Assembly (NCBI GenBank): GCA_963667255.1
Contig: OY762940.1
Coordinates: forward strand, 224,001 to 288,000
From: Candidatus Cloacimonadota bacterium
GTDB lineage: Bacteria > Cloacimonadota > Cloacimonadia > G963667145
Direction of reading: 5' to 3'
DNA length: 64,000 bases
This document shows, piece after piece, positions 4,754 through 19,883 of this stretch. The notes beneath the pieces are model-generated. The model made no database searches and was not told where the DNA came from. It saw only the letters and a list, made by a program, of their open reading frames with translations. Positions within the stretch are counted from its first letter, which is position 1; each line of letters opens with the position of its first letter. The position numbers and the translations under genes were made by a program.

Positions 4754-7700
4754 ATGAAGATGAGAAAAAATTTTCTTTTCTCCTTATTTTTCGTCGTTTT
4801 GTTGTTGGCTTGCACCGACTACGAGTCCTTTATGTCCTATAATTATACATACACTGTTTCTGGCTCTGTAAAAACCACAGACAACACTGGATATGAGGGA
4901 GCTATTCTAACTCTCGGAGGAAACACTTCCAAAAGTGCAAAAACCGATAGTAGTGGTGCTTACGCTTTCGAAGATGTGGCAATAGGGAAACATTCCATTA
5001 CCCTCACTGTGCCAGCTAATTACGCTGCCGACACTACCATAAAAAACATCGTGGTAAGTGCCTCAAACAACACTGGGAACGACTTCATTATCGCAAAATA
5101 TTGCACTATATCCGGCACAGTCTCGACCTCAACTGGAACTAAATACAGCGGAGCAACTATAAATTTAAGTGGATTTACCACTGCATCTACTACCACAAAT
5201 AGCGAGGGTTTCTATTCGTTCAGCGTGCCACCAAATAAGACTTATAAAGTATCGTTAGTCGTGCCTACCAATTACATTGCCGAAACCACAGAAAAATCTA
5301 TCTCTCTCGCCTATACAGACAGCACAGGAAACAATTTTACCATTACAAGGACCTACTCTATCTCCGGGACTGTCTCTGGCTATATTGGAACAGCTACCAT
5401 TGAGATTTTGGACTACGCTTCCAACAAAGTGAATAGCAAAACTACCAGTGGAAATGGTGGCACTTACACATTTGCCGGACTCTTGAAAGACAGCACTTAC
5501 ACAGTCAAGCTAACAATCCCAACCAATTGCATCGCTGACGACACAACTGAAACTTACAAAATATCTGACAATGTAACCAAAAACTTTACGCTTTCTCCAA
5601 TCTACTCCATCTCTGGGACGATTAATCTTGCGACTAACAACAATGGAACTTCTGCTTTCACTGGTGGAAGCGTGAGTGTGTCGTTGAGTGGGGCTACAAA
5701 TAAGACAATAAACACAAGCGACGGCTTATACTCATTCAATGGACTTACGACCGGCTCTTACACTGTCACGATTACAAACCCAACCGGATACTACACAAAA
5801 GACACTGTTATCACTATCAATCCTCTGAATGCTGATAAACCAAACCAAAACTTCACTATCAAAAAATTGTATTCTATATCTGGCAAAGTTTCCGGCTACA
5901 ATAGTGCCAATCTTACCTTGAGTGGAGACTCTTCGGCTACTACCACCACAAGCACAGATGGCTCTTACTCATTCACAGGCTTAGTCAATGGCAACTACAA
6001 GGTAACCTTAACCATTCCAACCAATTACATCGCTGACGACACAATCAAAGACATCACCATCAGCGATGCCAATGTCGTAGATAGCAACTTTGTTCTTACA
6101 CCAACCTACTCCATCTCTGGGACTGTTAATCTGGCGACTGCAAGCACTACCTCAGCTTACACGAACAGTGCTGTAACGGTAACCCTAAGCAATGGGAAGA
6201 CAACTACAACCAACACAAGCGACGGATCATACTCATTCAGTGGGCTTTTAGCCGGCTCATACACTGTAACTCTTACAACTCCTACCGGCTACTATTGTGC
6301 TACCACTACAATTAGCGTAAACAATTTGAACGCTGATAAACCAAACCAAGATTTCACTATTGAAAAAACTTACAAAATCTCCGGTAAAGTCACCGGCTAC
6401 ACACAAGCAACTGTCGTTTTGGGTGGAAAATCTACCAGCTCTGTGAAGACTTCTACTACCGACAGCACCTACTCATTCACGGGATTGACAAGTGGCTCTT
6501 ACACTGTGACCCTAACTATCCCTGATGCTACCTACTTTGCAGACGATACGACTGAAGCCATAACCATCACAAATGGCGACATCACCAAAAACTTTGCTCT
6601 CACTAAGACCTACACTATCTCTGGGACGATTAATCTTGCGACTAACAACAATGGAACTTCTGCTTTCACTGGTGGAAGCGTGAGTGTGTCGTTGAGTGGG
6701 GCTACAAATAAGACAATAAACACAAGCGACGGCTTATACTCATTCAATGGACTTACGACCGGCTCTTACACTGTCACGATTACAAACCCAACCGGATACT
6801 ACGCAAAAGACACTGTTATCACTATCAATCCTCTGAACGCTGATAAACCAAACCAAAACTTCACTATCAAAAAATTGTATTCTATATCTGGCAAAGTTTC
6901 CGGCTACAATAGTGCCAATCTTACCTTGAGTGGAGACTCTTCGGCTACTACCACCACAAGCACAGATGGCTCTTACTCATTCGCTAATCTAGTGAATGGC
7001 AACTACAAGGTAACCTTAACCATTCCAACCGGTTACATCGCTGACGACACAATCAAAGACATCACCATCAGCGATGCCAATGTCGTAGATAGCAACTTTG
7101 TTCTTACACCAACCTACTCCATCTCTGGGACTGTTAATCTGGCGACTGCAAGCACTACCTCAGCTTACACGAACAGTGCTGTAACTGTAACCCTAAGCAA
7201 TGGGAAGACGACTACAACCAACACAAGCAATGGCTCATACTCATTCAGTGGGCTTTTAGCCGGCTCTTACACTGTAACTCTTACAACTCCTACCGGCTAC
7301 TATTGTGCTACCACTACAATTAGCGTAAACAATTTGAACGCTGATAAACCAAACCAAGATTTCACTATTGAAAAAACTTACAAAATCTCCGGTAAAGTCA
7401 CCGGCTACACACAAGCAACTGTCGTTTTGGGTGGAAAATCTACCAGCTCTGTGCAGACTTCTGCTACAGACAGCACCTACTCATTCACGGGATTGACAAG
7501 TGGCTCTTACACTGTGACCCTAACTATCCCCGATGCCACCTACTTTGCCGACGATACGACTGAGGCAATAACCATCACAAATAGCGACATCACCAAAAAC
7601 TTTGCTCTAACTAAGACTTACACTATCTCAGGGACTGTCAAACTTGGTGGTAGCAACTTCACTGGAAGTGCCGATGTAACTATCAGTGGTGGCTCACTGA

Positions 7701-9598
7701 CTGCCAGCAAAACCATTCCAACAATAAACGGCTCTTACTCCTTATCTGGCTTGGTCGCTGGCTCATACACTGTAACTCTTACAACTCCTACCGGCTACTA
7801 TTGTGCTGCCACAACAATTAGCGTAAACAATTTGACCGCTGATAAACCAAACCAAGATTTCACTATTGAAAAAACTTACAAAATCTCCGGTAAAGTTTCC
7901 GGCTACACCAGTGCCAATCTTACCTTGAGTGGAGACTCTTCGGCTACTACCACCACAAGCACAGATGGCTCTTACTCATTCACAGGCTTGGTCAATGGCA
8001 ACTACAAGGTAACCTTAACCATTCCAACCAATTACATCGCTGACGACACAATCAAAGACATCACCATCAGCGATGCCAATGTCGTAGATAGCAACTTTGT
8101 TCTTACACAAATCTACTCCATCTCTGGGACGATTAATCTTGCGACTAACAACAATGGAACTTCTGCTTTCACTGGTGGAAGCGTGAGTGTGTCGTTGAGT
8201 GGAGCTACGAACAAAACAATAACCACAAACAACGGCTCGTATTCGTTCGATAATCTTTTAGCCGGCTCTTACACTGTCACGATTACAAACCCAACCGGAT
8301 ACTACACAAAAGACGCTGTTATCACTATCAATCCTCTGAATGCTGATAAACCAAACCAAAACTTCACTATCAAAAAATTGTATTCTATATCTGGCAAAGT
8401 TTCCGGCTACAATAGTGCCAATCTTACCTTGAGTGGAGACTCTTCGGCTACTACCACCACAAGCACAGATGGTTCTTACTCATTCACAGGCTTGGTCAAT
8501 GGCAACTACAAGGTAACCTTAACCATTCCAACCAATTACATCGCTGACGACACAATCAAAGACATCACCATCAGTGATGCCAATGTTGCAAACTCAAATT
8601 TCACTCTTATCCCACCTATCTCTCTATCCGACCTAAAAACTCTAATAGCCAACGATAGTGATGTAACCAATGTCAACACTTCTACCATCACAGACATGTC
8701 TTCACTATTCCAAGGGAAAACTACTTTCAACCAAGACATTAGCAACTGGGATGTCAGCAAAGTAACAAACATGCTCAACATGTTCTCCGGAGCCACCAAA
8801 TTCAATCAAAACATAGGAAACTGGAATGTAAGTAGCGTAACCAATATGAGCTACATGTTCCGAGGCGCTACATCATTCAACCAAGACCTAAATAACTGGA
8901 CAACAACTAATGTAACCAATATGAGCAACATGTTCTTTGAAGCCACCAAATTCAATCAAAATATAGGAAACTGGAATGTAAGTAGCGTAACCGATATGAG
9001 CAACATGTTCCGAGACGCTAAATCATTCAACCAAGACCTAAATAACTGGACAACAACTAATGTAACCAATATGAGCAACATGTTCTATGGAGACACCACC
9101 TTCAATGGTAATATTAGTAACTGGAATGTAAGTAGCGTAACCGATATGAGCAGCATGTTCCAAGACGCTAAATCATTCAACCAAGACCTAAATAACTGGA
9201 CAACAACTAATGTAACCAATATGAGCTACATGTTCTGTAGAGCCACCAACTTCAATGGTAATATTAGTAACTGGAATGTTAGCAAGGTAACCGATATGAC
9301 CTACATGTTCCTAAGAGCTACATCATTCAACAAAGACCTAAATAACTGGATAACAACTAATGTAATCAATATGACAGGAATGTTCTTTGGAGCCACCAAC
9401 TTCAATGGTAATATTAGTAGCTGGGCAGATTGTATAAAAAAAGTAACCACTATGGAAGGAATGTTCTGTAGTGCTACATCATTTAATCAAAACCTTAGTG
9501 GTTGGACGGCTGATAAATTTAACTCAAGTGTAATTCATACAAATTTTGATACAGGAGCAAGTGCTTGGAACAGTGGATACAAACCTACTTTCCCATAA
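4754..9598 (+). CDS. 1614-aa surface lipoprotein: tandem CnaB/SdrD-B (prealbumin-like) beta-sandwich modules plus C-terminal DUF285/BspA-like repeats
   Basis: Lipobox LLLAC at residue 20; recurring YSISGTV...T..DG.YSF.GL..G.YTVT modules; C-terminal FNQDISNWDVSKVTNMxxMF 25-aa repeats. Confidence 0.85.
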   Translation: MKMRKNFLFSLFFVVLLLACTDYESFMSYNYTYTVSGSVKTTDNTGYEGAILTLGGNTSKSAKTDSSGAYAFEDVAIGKHSITLTVPANYAADTTIKNIVVSASNNTGNDFIIAKYCTISGTVSTSTGTKYSGATINLSGFTTASTTTNSEGFYSFSVPPNKTYKVSLVVPTNYIAETTEKSISLAYTDSTGNNFTITRTYSISGTVSGYIGTATIEILDYASNKVNSKTTSGNGGTYTFAGLLKDSTYTVKLTIPTNCIADDTTETYKISDNVTKNFTLSPIYSISGTINLATNNNGTSAFTGGSVSVSLSGATNKTINTSDGLYSFNGLTTGSYTVTITNPTGYYTKDTVITINPLNADKPNQNFTIKKLYSISGKVSGYNSANLTLSGDSSATTTTSTDGSYSFTGLVNGNYKVTLTIPTNYIADDTIKDITISDANVVDSNFVLTPTYSISGTVNLATASTTSAYTNSAVTVTLSNGKTTTTNTSDGSYSFSGLLAGSYTVTLTTPTGYYCATTTISVNNLNADKPNQDFTIEKTYKISGKVTGYTQATVVLGGKSTSSVKTSTTDSTYSFTGLTSGSYTVTLTIPDATYFADDTTEAITITNGDITKNFALTKTYTISGTINLATNNNGTSAFTGGSVSVSLSGATNKTINTSDGLYSFNGLTTGSYTVTITNPTGYYAKDTVITINPLNADKPNQNFTIKKLYSISGKVSGYNSANLTLSGDSSATTTTSTDGSYSFANLVNGNYKVTLTIPTGYIADDTIKDITISDANVVDSNFVLTPTYSISGTVNLATASTTSAYTNSAVTVTLSNGKTTTTNTSNGSYSFSGLLAGSYTVTLTTPTGYYCATTTISVNNLNADKPNQDFTIEKTYKISGKVTGYTQATVVLGGKSTSSVQTSATDSTYSFTGLTSGSYTVTLTIPDATYFADDTTEAITITNSDITKNFALTKTYTISGTVKLGGSNFTGSADVTISGGSLTASKTIPTINGSYSLSGLVAGSYTVTLTTPTGYYCAATTISVNNLTADKPNQDFTIEKTYKISGKVSGYTSANLTLSGDSSATTTTSTDGSYSFTGLVNGNYKVTLTIPTNYIADDTIKDITISDANVVDSNFVLTQIYSISGTINLATNNNGTSAFTGGSVSVSLSGATNKTITTNNGSYSFDNLLAGSYTVTITNPTGYYTKDAVITINPLNADKPNQNFTIKKLYSISGKVSGYNSANLTLSGDSSATTTTSTDGSYSFTGLVNGNYKVTLTIPTNYIADDTIKDITISDANVANSNFTLIPPISLSDLKTLIANDSDVTNVNTSTITDMSSLFQGKTTFNQDISNWDVSKVTNMLNMFSGATKFNQNIGNWNVSSVTNMSYMFRGATSFNQDLNNWTTTNVTNMSNMFFEATKFNQNIGNWNVSSVTDMSNMFRDAKSFNQDLNNWTTTNVTNMSNMFYGDTTFNGNISNWNVSSVTDMSSMFQDAKSFNQDLNNWTTTNVTNMSYMFCRATNFNGNISNWNVSKVTDMTYMFLRATSFNKDLNNWITTNVINMTGMFFGATNFNGNISSWADCIKKVTTMEGMFCSATSFNQNLSGWTADKFNSSVIHTNFDTGASAWNSGYKPTFP
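5600..8590 (+). repeat. Near-identical kb-scale internal duplications in the surface protein gene
   Basis: CTCTGGGACGATTAATCTTGCGACTAAC occurs at 5611, 6619 (period 1008 bp) and 8122; module order is roughly A-B-C-D-A-B-C-D-E-B-A-B. Confidence 0.9.
8726..9510 (+). repeat. 75-bp tandem coding repeats (DUF285) with an alternating 150-bp higher-order period
   Basis: TTCAA(C/T) unit starts at 8726, 8801, ...; about 10 units alternating NW(N/D)V and NWTT types. Confidence 0.9.
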
Positions 9599-9703
9599 TA
9601 AATTTTGAGGGATATCTATTTTTTGTCCCTCTAAGATAATGACTGATTAGAAAGCCCTCTTTTTTTGACTGATTTAGGGGGTTTCAATTCTTCTCCGGAA
9701 TTG

Positions 9704-9738
9704 GGGTCGCAATCTTCTGTAGATTGCGACCTTTTTTA
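9704..9738 (+). terminator. Terminator hairpin between convergent genes
   Basis: GGTCGCAATCT-TCTGT-AGATTGCGACC followed by a T run. Confidence 0.75.
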
Positions 9739-9770
9739 TATTCAAATTATTTATCGCCTTATTGGGGAAA

Positions 9771-10256
9771 TCAGTTGTCTATCTCTATCCCTTCCAGTTG
9801 TAGCAACTTCCTCTTTACAGCCAAGCCCGATGCAAATCCGCCTATTTTATTTCCCGCGGCTATCACTCGATGACAGGGGATTACTATCGCCAGAGGATTT
9901 TTGCCACACGCTGTTCCCACCGCTCTGCCAGCTTTGGGCATTCCTATATTCTCGGCAACTTCTCCATACGACAGAGTTTGCCCAAAAGGAATTTTTCGGA
10001 GCTCTCCCAAAACCTTTAAAACAAAAGACGAGCCTTGCGGATTTAGACACAAAGCAAAATCTTTGCGTTTTCCGTCCAAATACTCCAAAATCTGCTTCTT
10101 CACATCTGATAATGCTTCTTCATTTCGCACACATCCCTCGGGCAAAACAAATTTCTCTCCACTTCCTCCCGATTGTATATGCACCATTTCAAGACCATTC
10201 TTTCCACAGACCACTACTATCTTGCCCAAAATAGTTTCAAACTCGTCATAATACAT
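9771..10256 (-). CDS. ogt: Methylated-DNA--protein-cysteine S-methyltransferase
   Basis: IPFGQTLSYG, RAVGTA, NPLAIVIPCHRVI active site. Confidence 0.95.
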   Translation of the reverse strand: MYYDEFETILGKIVVVCGKNGLEMVHIQSGGSGEKFVLPEGCVRNEEALSDVKKQILEYLDGKRKDFALCLNPQGSSFVLKVLGELRKIPFGQTLSYGEVAENIGMPKAGRAVGTACGKNPLAIVIPCHRVIAAGNKIGGFASGLAVKRKLLQLEGIEIDN

Positions 10257-10430
10257 AATCTCTCCTTTGGATATTTATATGTTTTCCCAAGCAATTAGAA
10301 AACCAACTACAAAAAAAAGTAAAAATATTTTAAAAAAAACTTGAGGGATTTTGCGTGCTTAAATATCTATGAATTTAGAACGAGTCTTGAATTGTAAAAC
10401 AAGACGAGATTTATTCTTCTTCTTCTGACA

Positions 10431-10468
10431 GATGGCGATCTTTTTAAAAGGTCGCCATTATTTTTTGT
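10431..10468 (+). terminator. Terminator-like hairpin in the leader upstream of the codA-like gene
   Basis: ATGGCGATC-TTTTTAAAA-GGTCGCCAT followed by TATTTTTT. Confidence 0.6.
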
Positions 10469-10534
10469 CAAATCATTTGACATTTCTTTCTCTTTTAGCG
10501 AAAAAAAATTAATTCAACTTTATTCGGAGGGAAA

Positions 10535-11740
10535 ATGGCAACGAACGAATTAGTAATCAAAAACGCCGTCACCAAGAACAGCGATAACAAGCCGGTGGAT
10601 ATCAGCATCAATGATGGAATAATCACAGAAATTTCCGAAAACCTCTCGGGGAAAAGCGAGATTGACGCTCAAAACAATCTTGTCACCGAATCTTTTATCA
10701 ACGGACATTTGCACCTCTGTAAAGTTTACACCCTGAAAATGATGAACTCGAACGCCCTCAATGCGTATACTCAAAACAATATGTCCGGAGCGATGACCTC
10801 CATCGAACTGGCTTCCGAGATAAAAAAGCAATACAACGCCGAATGGATACTGCCCAATGTGAGAAAAGCGTTAGATTTGGCTGTCAACTATGGCAATCTG
10901 CATATTAGAGCGTTCGTGGACACGGACACCAAAGCAAAATTGGAGGGAATGAAAGCGGTTTTGCAAGCTAAGCAAGAGTATAAGGATAAACTCAATCTGC
11001 AAGTGGTGGCGTTCCCGCAAGACGGAGTAGTCCGCGACCCGGGTGCTTATCAGATAGTGGAAGAAGGCTTGAAAATGGGAGCCGATGTAGTCGGAGGAAT
11101 CCCGTGGATAGAGTACACAATCGACGATTGCAAAAAACATATCGACCTGATGTTTGAATTGGCATTGAACTACAACAAAGACATCTCCATGCTGGTGGAC
11201 GATGCAGGCGACAACGAACTGCGAACTTTGGAATATTTGGCAATCAAGACGATAGAACACGGCTGGCAAGGCAGAGTAACGGCTCAACACGCTAGAGCGG
11301 TAGCCACTTATCCGCAAATTTACTTCGAGAAATTGACTCATCTGCTCAAAGAAGCAAAAATTGGAATCATCAGTGACCCTCAAACAGGACCATTGCATTG
11401 CAGAGTGATGGACATATACAATGCGGGAATAAATATCGGCTTGGGTCAAGACGACATCTGCGATGCCTACTATCCTTTCGGAAGAAACAATATGCCTGAA
11501 GTAGCTTTCCTCTCCGCACATCTGATGGAGAGAAAATCGCCAGAAGATATGGAAATACTCTACGAACTAATCACCACCAAAGCTGCCAAAGCTCTCGGCA
11601 TAGATAATCACGAACTAAAAATTGGAAATCCAGCCAACTTGGTAATTTTGGATGCAAAAAACATATGGGAATCACTCTGGACACACTCACTTCCCAAGTG
11701 CGTAATAAGTAACGGGAAAATCATAGCCGAAAAAAAATAA
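10535..11740 (+). CDS. Cytosine/creatinine deaminase-like amidohydrolase
   Basis: NGHLHL, QVVAFPQDG, DVVGGIP, LGQDD..D.YYPFG, IGNPANLV; GGAGG RBS. Confidence 0.85.
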   Translation: MATNELVIKNAVTKNSDNKPVDISINDGIITEISENLSGKSEIDAQNNLVTESFINGHLHLCKVYTLKMMNSNALNAYTQNNMSGAMTSIELASEIKKQYNAEWILPNVRKALDLAVNYGNLHIRAFVDTDTKAKLEGMKAVLQAKQEYKDKLNLQVVAFPQDGVVRDPGAYQIVEEGLKMGADVVGGIPWIEYTIDDCKKHIDLMFELALNYNKDISMLVDDAGDNELRTLEYLAIKTIEHGWQGRVTAQHARAVATYPQIYFEKLTHLLKEAKIGIISDPQTGPLHCRVMDIYNAGINIGLGQDDICDAYYPFGRNNMPEVAFLSAHLMERKSPEDMEILYELITTKAAKALGIDNHELKIGNPANLVILDAKNIWESLWTHSLPKCVISNGKIIAEKK

Positions 11741-16620: not shown

Positions 16621-16639
16621 AGAAATTTACCTCTTCCTA

Positions 16640-16830
16640 TATGCCCGTAAAATGGGTATCCATTCTTTATTCGTTCTTGCTTTATATGTTCTTTCCCTTT
16701 GCTTAGAGGTGACAAAAAGTTCGGCAAGCTGATTTTGGTTCATCCAAATATTGTCAGTTTTGGTATATTAGGCAACCGATGCTTTGCCGTCAGCAGTTTT
16801 ATAGATGATGATGTTTTTTTTAGTATTCAT
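16640..16830 (-). pseudogene. RhuM-family protein N-terminal remnant with an internal stop
   Basis: From ATG 16830: MNTKKNIIIYKTADGKASVA*YTKTDNIWMNQNQLAELFVTSKQ, resembling the RhuM N-terminus (IIIY...IW.NQ.QLAELF); similarity is lost afterwards and the end coordinate is approximate. Confidence 0.6.
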
Positions 16831-16849
16831 TTGTTATCTGTTTACTTTT

Positions 16850-16923
16850 TGCTAATGTTGCAAATAACTGGTGCAAATGGAGCGTAGCGAAATTTGCATC
16901 CGAGTTAATTTGTCCTGTTAGCT
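16850..16923 (-). mobile_element. Integron attC-like recombination site
   Basis: Minus strand AGCTAAC-AGGA-CAAATTAACT-CGGATGCAAAT-TTCGCTACGCTCC-ATTTGCACC-AGTTATTTG-CAAC-ATTAGCA: R'' ...AAC, unpaired spacer, L boxes with extrahelical bases, R' ATTAGCA (G>A versus GTTRRRY); 30 bp after a CDS stop. Confidence 0.75.
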
Positions 16924-16953
16924 TTCTTTACGATTGCTATACTTCAATTATTA

Positions 16954-17886
16954 CTATTCACCCATCATTATCTTTGCTAATTGCAAAGATGGCTCTGGGA
17001 ATTTATCATAATTAGGCATACTTCCATATGGATTTATGTCTATTATAATTTCCGTGCCATTCTCATCTAATAAAAAGTCAAAACATAAAAAATTTAGCCT
17101 GAACTTTTTCATCAGTTGCACAAGTCCAGACATTGTTTTTCTGGTACATTTGTAATTTGTAGATAAATATTGGGCTGGACTTTTATCAAAATCATTAATC
17201 TTATCCCTAATGTACACAAAAAGTAATCCTCCGATAATATATCCACGATATTCATTAATTGCCTGTATTTCTTGTTGTAAAAAAGCGACTTTAATATAGG
17301 ATAAATATTTCTCTATACTTTGTACATCAAAAGAGGATGCTGGAAATATTACAGCTATATCTCCATCATCTTCTTCAATTCTAAAATAATTTTTGATATT
17401 TGGTCGCAGGAAATCATTGTTTAGAGAAACGAAACAATTGCCGAGCGCTTTGATCGCCTTTCTCCCATCTAATGGTAAGACGCCCCCTTTTTTTATGATG
17501 AGGTATTCAGCAATATTAACACCTACTGCAAGTGCTTGACTTAACGAAAATGCCCTATTTCTGAGCATCCATGTAGATGCCAAATGATTTATGGAAACTT
17601 CGTCAAATATCAATGACAAAGTTTTATAAAATTCTGTTTCTTCTCGAAGCTCAAACGTTTCTGAATGCGGTGGGATTAAATCATAAGGATATCTGATAAA
17701 AGAAGAACTAAAATCATTGATTATGTATGAAGTCTTTTTATTGCACATGTATAATGAATGAGTGTCTACAGCATTAACATCATCACAATTAATCACAGTA
17801 ATATTGTCTTTCCCAATATCTTTAAATGCCATCTCCAAATTTGACATGGATGTATATGGACATCCGATAATTATCAACCTATTCAT
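16954..17886 (-). CDS. ATP-grasp ligase, RimK/MvdC-MvdD (graspetide synthetase)-like
   Basis: AIKAL, FLQQEI...EYRGYIIG, LMKKFRLNFLCFDFLLDENG..IIDINPYG; AT-rich. Confidence 0.75.
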   Translation of the reverse strand: MNRLIIIGCPYTSMSNLEMAFKDIGKDNITVINCDDVNAVDTHSLYMCNKKTSYIINDFSSSFIRYPYDLIPPHSETFELREETEFYKTLSLIFDEVSINHLASTWMLRNRAFSLSQALAVGVNIAEYLIIKKGGVLPLDGRKAIKALGNCFVSLNNDFLRPNIKNYFRIEEDDGDIAVIFPASSFDVQSIEKYLSYIKVAFLQQEIQAINEYRGYIIGGLLFVYIRDKINDFDKSPAQYLSTNYKCTRKTMSGLVQLMKKFRLNFLCFDFLLDENGTEIIIDINPYGSMPNYDKFPEPSLQLAKIMMGE

Positions 17887-17925
17887 AATGTTTTATATGT
17901 GTGTTTATTCTCCATAAATTAAAAT

Positions 17926-17966
17926 AAGGGAACTGGCAACATCTACTAACCAGCTCCAGCTCCCTT
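17926..17966 (-). terminator. Stem-loop immediately 3' of the micro-ORF (terminator/attenuator or mRNA stabiliser)
   Basis: AAGGGAGCTGG...CCAGTTCCCTT, an 11-bp stem with one G-U pair, followed by ATTTTAATTT. Confidence 0.7.
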
Positions 17967-17973
17967 TATCAAA

Positions 17974-18000
17974 TCAGTCTTTCCAGATTTTACAGCACAT
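17974..18000 (-). CDS. Putative 8-residue RiPP precursor peptide MCCKIWKD
   Basis: TAAAGGAGGTAGAAAT-ATG TGC TGT AAA ATC TGG AAA GAC TGA: a perfect SD directly after the rSAM stop, lying between two peptide-modifying enzyme genes. Confidence 0.65.
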   Translation of the reverse strand: MCCKIWKD

Positions 18001-18016
18001 ATTTCTACCTCCTTTA

Positions 18017-18963
18017 TTAATCTTGATTATATATTGCTTTCTCAGCAATACAGTAACCTGTGCAAGATTTGTCTATTCGACTCTGACAAGTTTTGCACAG
18101 TGGGAGAGAGCATACTAAATATTTCAATCTTTCTATTTCCTTGTTATTAACTATAAATTCTTTTGCTTCAGAAAAAGAATTAAAGTCAGTTATTTTTTTA
18201 TCTGTTAAATTGTAAAAAGGACATGAGGCAATCGATAGGTCAGGATTAATGAGAAGATTTCCACATTCATTATATGATAATCCTTTTGAATGTAAATCGT
18301 AACTATTAATTTCTTCTGATGTAAAGAAACATTTCGGAAAAGGACAATCAAAAAGAACATTCAGCCCAATTGACTCAACTGCTCTTATATAAGATAAAAG
18401 CTGGGGTTTATGTGACTCAATTTCTTTTATTGATATATATTTGTTTTTTTTTCGATTGATGGTCGCGCAAGATCTAAACGAATTTCGCGAATATTGCTGT
18501 ACTTTTTGGCTATGCCAAGAATATTTTCAATACTTTGGTCGATTTTGTAAATTGTACAAGAAAGCAAAACATCAATTTTCAGATTTTCCAATGTTGCCAA
18601 ATTCTCTAAAATTAGATTTTTTTCTGTAATCGTATAAGTGTCGAATAATGTAATATTGGCACATATGTTCTGGATATTTTTAAAAGAAGATAAGATGTCT
18701 CTTTTAAATAATAAATTACTCAACATATTTATATGAAAATTCATATCATTTGCCAACTTTAACAAATGAATAAAATTCCTATGAATTGTCGGTTCCCCAC
18801 CTAATAAAGTTAAGGTGTTAATATTTTGAAACTTTAGCCATAGCAACAAGCTATTGAAATCTGGTATCGATATTTCAGCATCGCGAATTGTCATGCTTGT
18901 TTGAAAACAGAATTCACATGACCTATTGCACTTATTCGTAAGTAGAAGTTTAGGACTCATCAT
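18017..18963 (-). CDS. Radical SAM/SPASM-domain protein, frameshifted at an A9 tract (18444-18452)
   Basis: N-part: CNRSCEFC, LLGGEPT. Adding one A continues the frame ...EKKNKYISIKEI...DCPFPKC...ECGNLLINPDLSIASCPF...CSLPLCKTCQSRIDKSCTGYCIAEKAIYNQD* (SPASM-type Cys pattern). GAGGT SD precedes ATG 18963. Confidence 0.8.
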
Positions 18964-19235
18964 AAAATGATACCTCGAAGTCCAATTCATTTAACATAAC
19001 CCTCATCTTTTATCCTTGTTTATAGACTTGTATATGTTGCTCATATTGGCAATCTAAACTAAAAATCGACAAGTTTTTTCTCCAAAATATTACCGCTACC
19101 CTCTGCATAAACTCAATTATATTTATTTCTTCTTTCATCAAGTTTCTAACCTAAATAAGATTTGATTTTTTTCAGTCAAAGCATCTTTGTGTTCGCAGGA
19201 TTGCAGTTTTATAAATAATGGTGTTTTTTTAGTAT

Positions 19236-19883
19236 TCATTTACCTTCCCTCACTCTCCTCACAAACTCCTCTATCAACTTCTCGCTTTTCACTTCGTCTT
19301 CTTCCACTCCACTGCTCACATCTACCGCCCAAGGTTGCAAGGTTTTTATTCCACTAATTACATTATCGGCGGTCAGACCGCCTGCCAAGACAAGCGGACA
19401 AGGAAAATCTATGCTCTTTGCCAACTGCCAATCAAAAATTTGCCCCAAGCCTCCGAACTGCTTTGCGGAAAATTTATCCAACAAGACAGCAGAAATATTT
19501 TTGGAAAAGCTACTCACATCTGGCAAACGATTTCCCCCAATTCGACAAGCTTTCCAAATAGAAACTCCCTTGCCGATTTTTTTTTGTAGCTCGTCAATGT
19601 AAGCGGAATCCTCATCGCCGTGCAATTGCACAACTTTCAGTCCGCAAGCAATTGCCTTTATGATGGTGAAATGCTCTTCGTTCACGAAAACCCCCACAGG
19701 GATAATTCGCTTGTCCAGTGCGAAAATCAACTCGGAAAGCAAAGCCAAAGAAACCTGCCGTTTGCTCCTTGCCAAGACAAATCCCGCAAAATCGGGCAAA
19801 TATTTGTTCAGAATTTGCACATCGGTAGCAGATTTTATTCCGCAAATTTTTATCTTGGTTTTAGGAATTTGGCTCATCATCAA
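19236..19883 (-). CDS. trpF: Phosphoribosylanthranilate isomerase
   Basis: KICGI, VQLHGDE, GGLGQIFDW, LAGGL, VDVSSGVE. Confidence 0.95.
   Translation of the reverse strand: MMMSQIPKTKIKICGIKSATDVQILNKYLPDFAGFVLARSKRQVSLALLSELIFALDKRIIPVGVFVNEEHFTIIKAIACGLKVVQLHGDEDSAYIDELQKKIGKGVSIWKACRIGGNRLPDVSSFSKNISAVLLDKFSAKQFGGLGQIFDWQLAKSIDFPCPLVLAGGLTADNVISGIKTLQPWAVDVSSGVEEDEVKSEKLIEEFVRRVREGK

Follow-up and report, generated by a model that had tools for sequence, protein, structure and literature searches.

A conserved ultra-short gene paired with one family of ATP-grasp ligases: probably a new type of leaderless RiPP

Introduction

The stretch of DNA analysed here (64,000 nucleotides from a Candidatus Cloacimonadota bacterium; hereafter 'the window') contains, between a radical SAM gene and the gene of an ATP-grasp ligase, an ORF of only eight codons preceded by a strong Shine-Dalgarno (SD) sequence and followed by a hairpin. 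Is such a small ORF a gene, and if so, what might its product be for? An earlier note on this DNA had proposed that it codes for a RiPP precursor made in excess over the downstream enzyme, with UGA read-through and a SECIS-like role for the hairpin as a weaker alternative. ATP-grasp loci devoid of an identifiable precursor have been described in CPR bacteria by Makarova et al., who suggested that small proteins had been missed (PMC8939145).

We report that the 8-codon ORF is a member of a conserved ultra-short gene family paired with one family of ATP-grasp enzymes. Judging from the sequences, this undescribed ligase family and its ultra-short gene probably represent a new type of leaderless RiPP. 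In the literature searched, with most subscription journals outside it, we found no description of the WKD motif or of the ligase family. The supplements of PMC8939145 and PMC13097080, with their thousands of ligases, could include members of the family without their peptide.

Results

An 8-codon ORF with a Shine-Dalgarno sequence and a hairpin

The features of the locus are collected in Table 1. The codons of MCCKIWKD run from 18000 to 17977 on the minus strand, and the TGA occupies 17976-17974. The SD sequence TAAAGGAGGT (18016-18007) abuts the TAA of the radical SAM gene, which ends at 18017, and pairs with the 3' end of the 16S rRNA of the same genome (GATCACCTCCTTT). Seven nucleotides past the TGA begins an 11-bp stem, AAGGGAGCTGG (17966-17956) and CCAGTTCCCTT (17936-17926), followed by the U-rich tail. 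Inspection of the window thus bore out the earlier description of the SD sequence directly past the radical SAM stop and 6 nt from the ATG, of the ORF, and of the stem with its tail. The hairpin has a predicted energy of -20.2 kcal/mol (z -3.66), and none of 200 dinucleotide shuffles folds equally well.

The arrangement AAGGAGGT-N4-9-ATG has just seven occurrences in the 1.59 Mb genome, and five of the seven start frames stay open across the 50 codons read. Elsewhere in this genome, near 1343700 (-) of G000:C1, a strong SD sequence, AAGGAGGT, precedes a 4-codon ORF, MQKN-stop. The sigma-70-like site lies ~270 nt ahead of the peptide ATG; it comes from a search that found 15 sites where 13.4 were expected.

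Table 1. Positions of the features of the peptide-ligase locus in the window
Feature	Position	Strand	Basis
attC-like site closing the cassette, bottom-strand hairpin -12.6 kcal/mol	16851..16922	-	by eye
310-aa ATP-grasp ligase, discrete uncharacterised family nearest graspetide synthetases	16954..17886	-	profile, structure, alignment
Terminator-like hairpin, stem 17966-17926, with U-rich tail	17915..17966	-	folding and homologue positions
ORF MCCKIWKD + TGA, predicted leaderless precursor	17974..18000	-	sequence and homologues
Shine-Dalgarno sequence TAAAGGAGGT, 6 nt spacer to ATG 18000	18007..18016	-	sequence
Radical SAM gene, Cys-rich C-terminal part, frameshifted at A run ~18444-18452	18017..18990	-	sequence
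Sigma-70-like site TTTACA-16-TATAAT, 11/12, inside the radical SAM gene	18269..18296	-	a lead only

The peptide is conserved across distant bacteria

Homologous loci were retrieved from genomes (9, out of 65 candidate stretches) and from metagenomes (13, out of 129). Seven of these 22 loci were set aside: L014 is a duplicate of L006; L009 is not a member, being a weak match of 34 residues devoid of the motif; and five lack upstream DNA, as the contig begins inside the gene (L012, L015 and L022) or leaves only 64 and 35 nt upstream, which hold the hairpin or its 3' half (L013 and L018). An ORF of 6-10 codons ending in [IV]-W-[KQ]-D-stop is present in all 15 loci with usable context. Together with the window, 16 of 16 loci conform to the pattern M-x(0-5)-[IV]-W-[KQ]-D-stop. 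The chance expectation for the motif is ~5e-5 per locus (0.0007 loci summed over 15), a figure to be read with the fact that the motif was derived from the very loci counted; the window's own W-K-D-stop is found in 9 of the 15 others. In the whole genome of the window, the motif occurs in three places only.

The predicted peptides are MRKIWQD, MTLSAIWQD, MAIWKD (twice), MINKVWKD, MANKIWKD, M(TM)EKIWKD, MAIWQD (twice, in L007 and L017), MVYSKIWQD, MSRAIWKD, MYSKIWKD, MKGAIWQD, MKRRKKIWKD and MAVWKD. Variation of the motif codons is limited to wobble positions and to the I/V and K/Q exchanges (ATT, ATC, ATA or GTT; AAA, CAA or CAG; GAC or GAT; all three stops). An in-frame ATG or GTG lies 2-6 codons upstream of the motif in 16 of 16 loci, versus 2 of 10 chance matches; two further chance-pattern matches, ending in TGG, were left out of these 10. 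The restriction of the variation to wobble positions and the constant presence of a nearby start codon argue for selection on the peptide.

Only Trp and Asp are invariant, and the Asp is the last residue in 16 of 16 loci. The position between them is Lys in ten and Gln in six, and it switches between sister enzymes, with Lys in L006 and Gln in L017 (support 90 in a quick tree of 86 rows). The N-terminal part is variable in length, and MAIWQD contains no Ser, Thr, Lys or Cys. The window's peptide is the sole one with Cys-Cys, and it lies beside a radical SAM gene (a single case); its ATG TGC TGT (18000-17992) differs by two single-base changes from the ATG TAC AGT of L011.

In 15 of 16 loci, the stop codon of the peptide ORF lies 31-138 nt before the ligase gene. 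An SD-like match of at least 7 nt was found in only seven of the 16 loci, and most of the remaining ones are of Patescibacteria type. Patescibacteria often lack SD sequences. The peptide conservation on which the earlier proposal partly hinged holds in all 15 usable homologues, and an SD-like sequence is found in 7 of 16 loci, window included.

The hosts comprise Wenzhouxiangellaceae, Cyclobacteriaceae, five genomes of the Patescibacteria group and one Acidobacteriaceae bin, whose ligase groups with Patescibacteria ligases in the quick tree. No further ligase-peptide loci were found in the viral contigs and plasmids searched, in 200 genomes of the window's phylum, save for one weak match (E 3.6e-4), or, apart from the two loci already known, in 401 genomes of the phylum to which genome G203 belongs. 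No other small ORF is common to the loci, as judged from the 984 ORFs of 15-150 aa that lie no more than 2 kb from 21 loci. A search of these neighbourhoods for a longer graspetide precursor of the conventional kind found none: the eight cross-locus matches either shadowed homologous genes or were weak.

The TGA is most likely a genuine stop

The frame of the window's ORF remains open for 22 more codons beyond the TGA, and the loop of the hairpin lies ~21 nt downstream, so that a UGA read as selenocysteine would yield a 31-residue peptide with the hairpin as its SECIS element. For the family, the homologues refute this idea of the earlier note. The stops are TAA in ten, TAG in three and TGA in three of the 16 loci, so that 13 of 16 have TAA or TAG, and the read-through extensions of the three TGA loci differ and are unrelated. 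No SelA was detected in the window's own genome, which is 98.9% complete (the SelA control was detected in 2 of 14 genomes), and no tRNA-Sec scores above the Rfam cut-off there, the ten sub-threshold matches being ordinary tRNAs. Together, the TAA and TAG stops and the missing selenocysteine machinery reduce the probability of this reading to almost nothing.

The hairpin is kept in position and not in sequence

A strong hairpin follows the peptide ORF in 15 of 16 loci (z at most -3.6 against 100 mononucleotide shuffles; -1.9 in L019). In the homologues, the stem starts 1-10 nt past the stop. Compared among loci, as the earlier note had suggested, the hairpin is conserved in position, its sequences are unrelated, and it is the peptide codons that show wobble-type variation. 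None of the ten chance matches to the motif in the same genomes is followed by a hairpin below z -1.2. In Rfam searches with the hairpins of nine loci, only sub-threshold matches were obtained, in L017. The hairpin would likely end or stabilise a short, peptide-only transcript, giving substrate in excess over the enzyme.

We considered whether the ORF is instead a cis-acting leader (an attenuator or an arrest peptide). It would then govern how often the hairpin is passed and the ligase gene entered, and the peptide itself would stay unmodified. The three elements follow one another in 15 of 16 loci, the stem lying close to the stop, an order that would suit such a device. Equilibrium folding gives the hairpin a probability of 0.88-1.0 without a ribosome in the 16 loci. 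Placing a ribosome footprint over the stop codon abolishes it in the window (P 0.0) and lowers it below 0.5 in 5 of 16 loci, and some translational coupling at the stop codon may thus occur according to the model. However, a footprint on the Trp codon leaves the hairpin at P of at least 0.98 in 15 of 16 loci, again by equilibrium folding only, which argues against a classical attenuator switch. A classical Trp or Cys attenuator was rejected, as no competing antiterminator was found and the ORF is upstream in cis in 15 of 16 loci rather than always. In addition, there is a single Trp codon, and tandem Cys codons are found in the window alone. In L003, MAIWKD is encoded on the other strand, as is its hairpin, past an oxygenase gene and downstream of both ligase and oxygenase, and no [IV]-W-[KQ]-D motif is present upstream of the ligase. 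This unit is unable to act in cis, which points to action in trans, an arrangement seen in 1 locus of 16. We therefore hold a purely regulatory leader to be quite improbable; by analogy with mccA, regulation may exist alongside a role as substrate.

The constant partner is a divergent ATP-grasp ligase

The protein encoded downstream is a divergent member of the ATP-grasp ligases, with graspetide synthetases as its closest relatives. It has no Pfam match, weakly matches four models of ATP-grasp peptide maturases and is assigned to generic ATP-grasp clusters only in the ESM Atlas. Its scores are ~20 bits, against curated graspetide-maturase cut-offs of 230-475, and the best E value among 46 members is 3.2e-11. 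These 46 relatives were obtained at 90% clustering. A profile search returned 44 clusters (50% identity) at E values of at most 1e-30, followed by a drop to ~1e-13, barring short fragments; this gap indicates that the family is discrete.

The AlphaFold model of the ligase (pLDDT 89.7) has the graspetide macrocyclases AMdnB, MdnB, MdnC and CdnC as its best Foldseek matches. VIA-align placed graspetide enzymes (Z 21.0, rmsd 3.3, 275 aligned) only slightly ahead of RimK (Z 19.9) and ArgX/LysW (Z 19.1). By sequence, graspetide enzymes are the only good matches in the PDB, with no LysX or RimK chain among the 15 at E of at most 1. When the 15 nearest outside proteins were scanned, 14 of them were recognised by graspetide-maturase HMMs at E<1e-20, and a full-length profile alignment with 54 outside proteins (graspetide synthetases) gave an hhalign probability of 99.9% (E 2.8e-37).

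Residues R65, K146, Q204, E212, R214, D234, D270 and N285 occupy conserved synthetase positions and are invariant in 46 of 46 members; P286 and G288 are likewise kept. R214, in an E-x-R motif, is presumably the equivalent of Arg213 of PsnB, which binds the ring-forming acid (10.1101/2021.03.09.434688). The ligase departs from graspetide synthetases by R111 for Lys, D283 for Glu and DKS for DWR, and from these replacements its chemistry may differ. Features of the family itself are an invariant RYPYDLIPPH segment, an invariant C151 just past the ATP-binding K146 and an 18-residue insert, bearing an acidic EEDDGD motif, in the loop that follows K146. The ligase gene of an Uhrbacteria bin (L007:6001-6930) is broken into two frames, and MAIWQD and its hairpin are intact.

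Tailoring genes are optional and neighbourhoods are unrelated

The radical SAM family comprises four clusters. Its gene adjoins that of the ligase in the window, in L012 and in Desulfosarcina ovata subsp. sediminis (DSCO28_21260/21250), and the two homologues apparently share a contig in two more records (sizes 19954 and 6307). The window's copy is ~90% identical to the intact D. ovata protein. A contig of run X1, possibly the source sample, matches the window from 16791 to 19158 without a gap, and a relative in run X5 has one extra base at the A run, so that the frameshift looks real in this population. The matches in the related runs X3-X5 do not extend over the peptide gene. As a defining partner of the peptide, the radical SAM enzyme was rejected, since it was not seen at the 15 other peptide loci, several of which lie on short contigs. 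The earlier reading of a precursor-type ORF with a hairpin ahead of a peptide-modifying enzyme is supported by conservation, with the amendment that the constant partner is the ATP-grasp enzyme and the radical SAM protein an optional extra.

A gene for a 2OG-Fe(II) oxygenase (178-200 aa, with HxD...H) is directly downstream in L001, L003, L004 and L013; its Pfam score is below the cut-off in three of these loci, and there is no match in one. L004 harbours the most elaborate cluster seen (6914-11626), with the ligase followed by the 2OG oxygenase, two glycosyltransferases, one of them fused to DUF2264, and a TauD-type dioxygenase; a vWA-PP2C-kinase triad is found upstream. The gene neighbourhoods are otherwise unrelated, and no exporter, protease or immunity gene is common to the loci. 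Defence-type genes are found near L006 (type III R-M, PD-T7-4-like), L015 (PD-Lambda-3_B) and L004 (the vWA-PP2C-kinase triad). Most loci have no such genes nearby, most scanned neighbours are not defence genes, and the ligase has no PADLOC match.

The module resembles a mobile cassette

Sites resembling attC, recognised by eye from what we take to be the features of such sites, lie past the ligase gene in the window, L010, L011 and L015, and also before the peptide in L010. The window's site matches many other contigs of run X1. No integron integrase over the TIGR02249 cut-off was found in the window's own genome (G000). The peptide-ligase module is missing from five of five genomes of the same genus, and the closest one holds other cargo in the same slot. 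This cargo (L037:2171-5515, in G007) codes for a protein of 1114 aa that combines six C-type lectin domains with an FGE-sulfatase domain. One X1 contig, with 46 letters on its short side, runs from 16837 directly into 19113, the junction expected of an empty site. The absence of a shared exporter, together with this apparent cassette life-style, suggests a function in intracellular conflicts.

Several further elements were observed around the cassettes. A 39-nt direct repeat (ATGAATACTAAAAAAA...ATAAAACTGC) flanks that of the window (16627-16833 and 19138-19239, minus strand). The lower copy begins a stop-interrupted ORF without a Pfam match, which we take to resemble the start of a RhuM-like gene. 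Two similar sequences of the form ATAAAT..TGAGTTTAT.CAGA.GTTAGC are present at 19095-19120 and at G000:C1:592901-592933, the latter just upstream of another short-spaced gene; by their sequence, they could be attI-like entry points. In L010 (1199-1447), an 82-aa ORF with two ATSGDSDARETRRK copies directly follows the ligase gene in the same attC-bounded cassette.

Discussion

Proposed reaction and its rivals

From the conservation and arrangement of the two genes, we are fairly confident that the peptide is the substrate of the ligase, which likely makes a new kind of very small modified peptide. Graspetide synthetases phosphorylate the carboxylate of an Asp or Glu, to which they direct a Ser, Thr or Lys as the donor (PMC13097080). 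We infer that the ORF is translated, that its product meets the ligase as a substrate and that it is the Asp that becomes activated; as the sole conserved acid, always terminal, this Asp is the likely acceptor. The ligase would thus activate the terminal Asp with ATP, and the activated Asp would likely close a small ring, for which the indole nitrogen of the invariant Trp, two positions earlier, is the most likely partner; the optional 2OG-Fe(II) oxygenase or radical SAM protein would decorate the product. As an overall explanation, a leaderless precursor modified in this manner has a nearly even chance of being correct. Its most specific element, the ring between Asp and the indole nitrogen, is tentative and is proposed by analogy with IndF, a RiPP precedent for indole-N acylation (PMC12150305). 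The Trp at position -2 would impose a fixed geometry, with a 13-atom ring if the beta-carboxyl is used (hand count). We found no report of an ATP-grasp enzyme acylating an indole, IndF being a ThiF enzyme with its Trp at -3. A Lys-Asp lactam was rejected as the family reaction: Gln replaces Lys in 6 of 16 loci, the two alternate between sister enzymes, and MAIWQD has no donor side chain, so that Lys is not a general donor. Closure onto the N-terminal amine appears improbable; such rings would span 5 to 10 residues, which is hard to reconcile with such close enzymes.

The closest rival is that the peptide is a minimal carrier or tag, its terminal Asp being joined to an outside amine (from an amino acid, from some small molecule or from a lysine of a protein) and its Trp serving for recognition only. 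This would parallel the action of LysX and ArgX on the terminal Glu of LysW, which ends in EDWGE where the Trp stands at the same distance from the terminal acid (PMC10433800), and LysX/ArgX and RimK are indeed close structural matches of the ligase. A free, fixed C-terminus behind a variable N-terminus recalls microcin C, and the defence-type neighbours in L006, L015 and L004, as well as the invariant Cys151 just after K146, also speak for it. However, the nearest sequence relatives are intramolecular macrocyclases, LysX and RimK being missing from the PDB matches by sequence, and neither an acceptor nor a releasing peptidase is encoded by a gene common to the loci. Most scanned neighbours are unrelated to defence, and PADLOC does not recognise the ligase. 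We consider a carrier or tag rather unlikely, though not far behind the ring on the indole nitrogen. The peptide might also be a stand-alone mimic of a leader that switches on the ligase for another substrate. Leaders activate synthetases through an aromatic residue and a nearby Asp, as do Phe15 and Asp18 of PsnA (10.1101/2021.03.09.434688), and the acidic insert after K146 might be relevant to such a role. This would leave the terminal position of the Asp in 16 of 16 loci and the oxygenase and radical SAM partners unexplained, and no second conserved substrate gene emerged from the small ORFs surveyed, which makes it decidedly improbable. Finally, the peptide could be primarily a radical SAM substrate, with a Trp-x-Asp crosslink or a Cys thioether and the ATP-grasp enzyme as an accessory. 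In favour of this, that enzyme family co-occurs with the ligase wherever the context can be checked, and the only Cys-containing peptide of 16 adjoins it. Its absence from the 15 other peptide loci in the available DNA, several contigs being short, and the frameshift of the window's copy render this very improbable.

Taking the locus as a whole, we lean slightly towards a new leader-free RiPP class, in which an offshoot of the graspetide synthetases would act on ribosomal peptides of 6-10 residues, with either a ring from the Trp indole to Asp or fusion to a cellular or phage target. Its two genes would travel as a mobile cassette among hosts as distant as ultrasmall Patescibacteria, Gammaproteobacteria and Bacteroidota, possibly with a role in intracellular defence. 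If true, this would add a leader-free branch to ATP-grasp peptide chemistry. The shortest precursor has six codons (21 bp with the stop, the size of mccA), below the reach of gene callers and of published graspetide surveys. The system could be studied with a single enzyme of 310 aa and an inexpensive synthetic hexapeptide, and the cultured D. ovata subsp. sediminis has close homologues of both enzymes, with an intact radical SAM protein. If confirmed, a ligase that needs no leader and recognises a tag of four residues would be a useful biocatalyst.

Comparison with known systems

Graspetide systems (microviridin MdnA/B/C, chryseoviridin CdnC, plesiocin PsnB, prunipeptin PruB) have the same ligase fold, the closest sequence relatives and the same ATP- and carboxylate-binding positions. 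They likewise have a precursor-type gene beside the ligase gene and occur in candidate-phyla bacteria (PMC8939145). In contrast with graspetides, the WKD peptides have no leader (Phhx(1,2)h) and no GG site, comprise 6-10 residues with a single, C-terminal acid and are devoid of a conserved Ser, Thr or Lys donor. Unlike graspetide synthetases, their ligase scores below the HMM cut-offs and has R111, D283, DKS and the 18-residue insert. We therefore rejected membership of the graspetides: the ligase is homologous, but the HMM score, the leader-core organisation and the conserved donor are all lacking.

By analogy, the mccA/mccB operon of microcin C is the closest precedent for the ORF-hairpin-ligase layout. 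The two share a tiny leaderless ORF, a terminator and an ATP-dependent enzyme, and MccB acts at the C-terminal residue of the mccA heptapeptide (PMC4231749; PMC12150305). Owing to the terminator that separates mccA from mccB, a short transcript is made in abundance (PMC4231749). In contrast, MccB is a ThiF-like adenylase that acts on Asn in a peptide with a fixed length of seven residues, whereas the WKD system has an ATP-grasp enzyme and a terminal Asp, its peptides vary in length, and neither an exporter nor an immunity gene is common to its loci. Biarylitides, with the bycA pentapeptide and a P450, are alike as minimal two-gene clusters with optional tailoring, and bycA is also too short for annotation (10.1101/2020.07.21.214643). 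They differ in that the P450 makes an oxidative biaryl crosslink, and enzyme and motif are unrelated.

LysW and its counterpart ArgW, with LysX and ArgX, resemble the WKD system by an ATP-grasp enzyme acting on a terminal acid and by a Trp two residues before it. LysW is, however, a folded, Zn-binding protein of a primary pathway, and the WKD ligase sides by sequence with graspetide synthetases. Where the LysW system has a folded carrier ending in EDWGE and a ligase of the LysX type, only W-x-acid is in common. The bond proposed here is that made by IndF of the Streptococcus pneumoniae ind cluster, which closes a ring between the indole nitrogen of Trp and the C-terminal carboxyl. That system differs by its enzyme type, the place of its Trp, a leader-bearing precursor and the presence of a peptidase and a transporter (PMC12150305). 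The minimal layout of leaderless RiPPs, a putative precursor of at most 10 aa encoded beside a dedicated enzyme, is found in 16 of 16 WKD loci, including that of the window.
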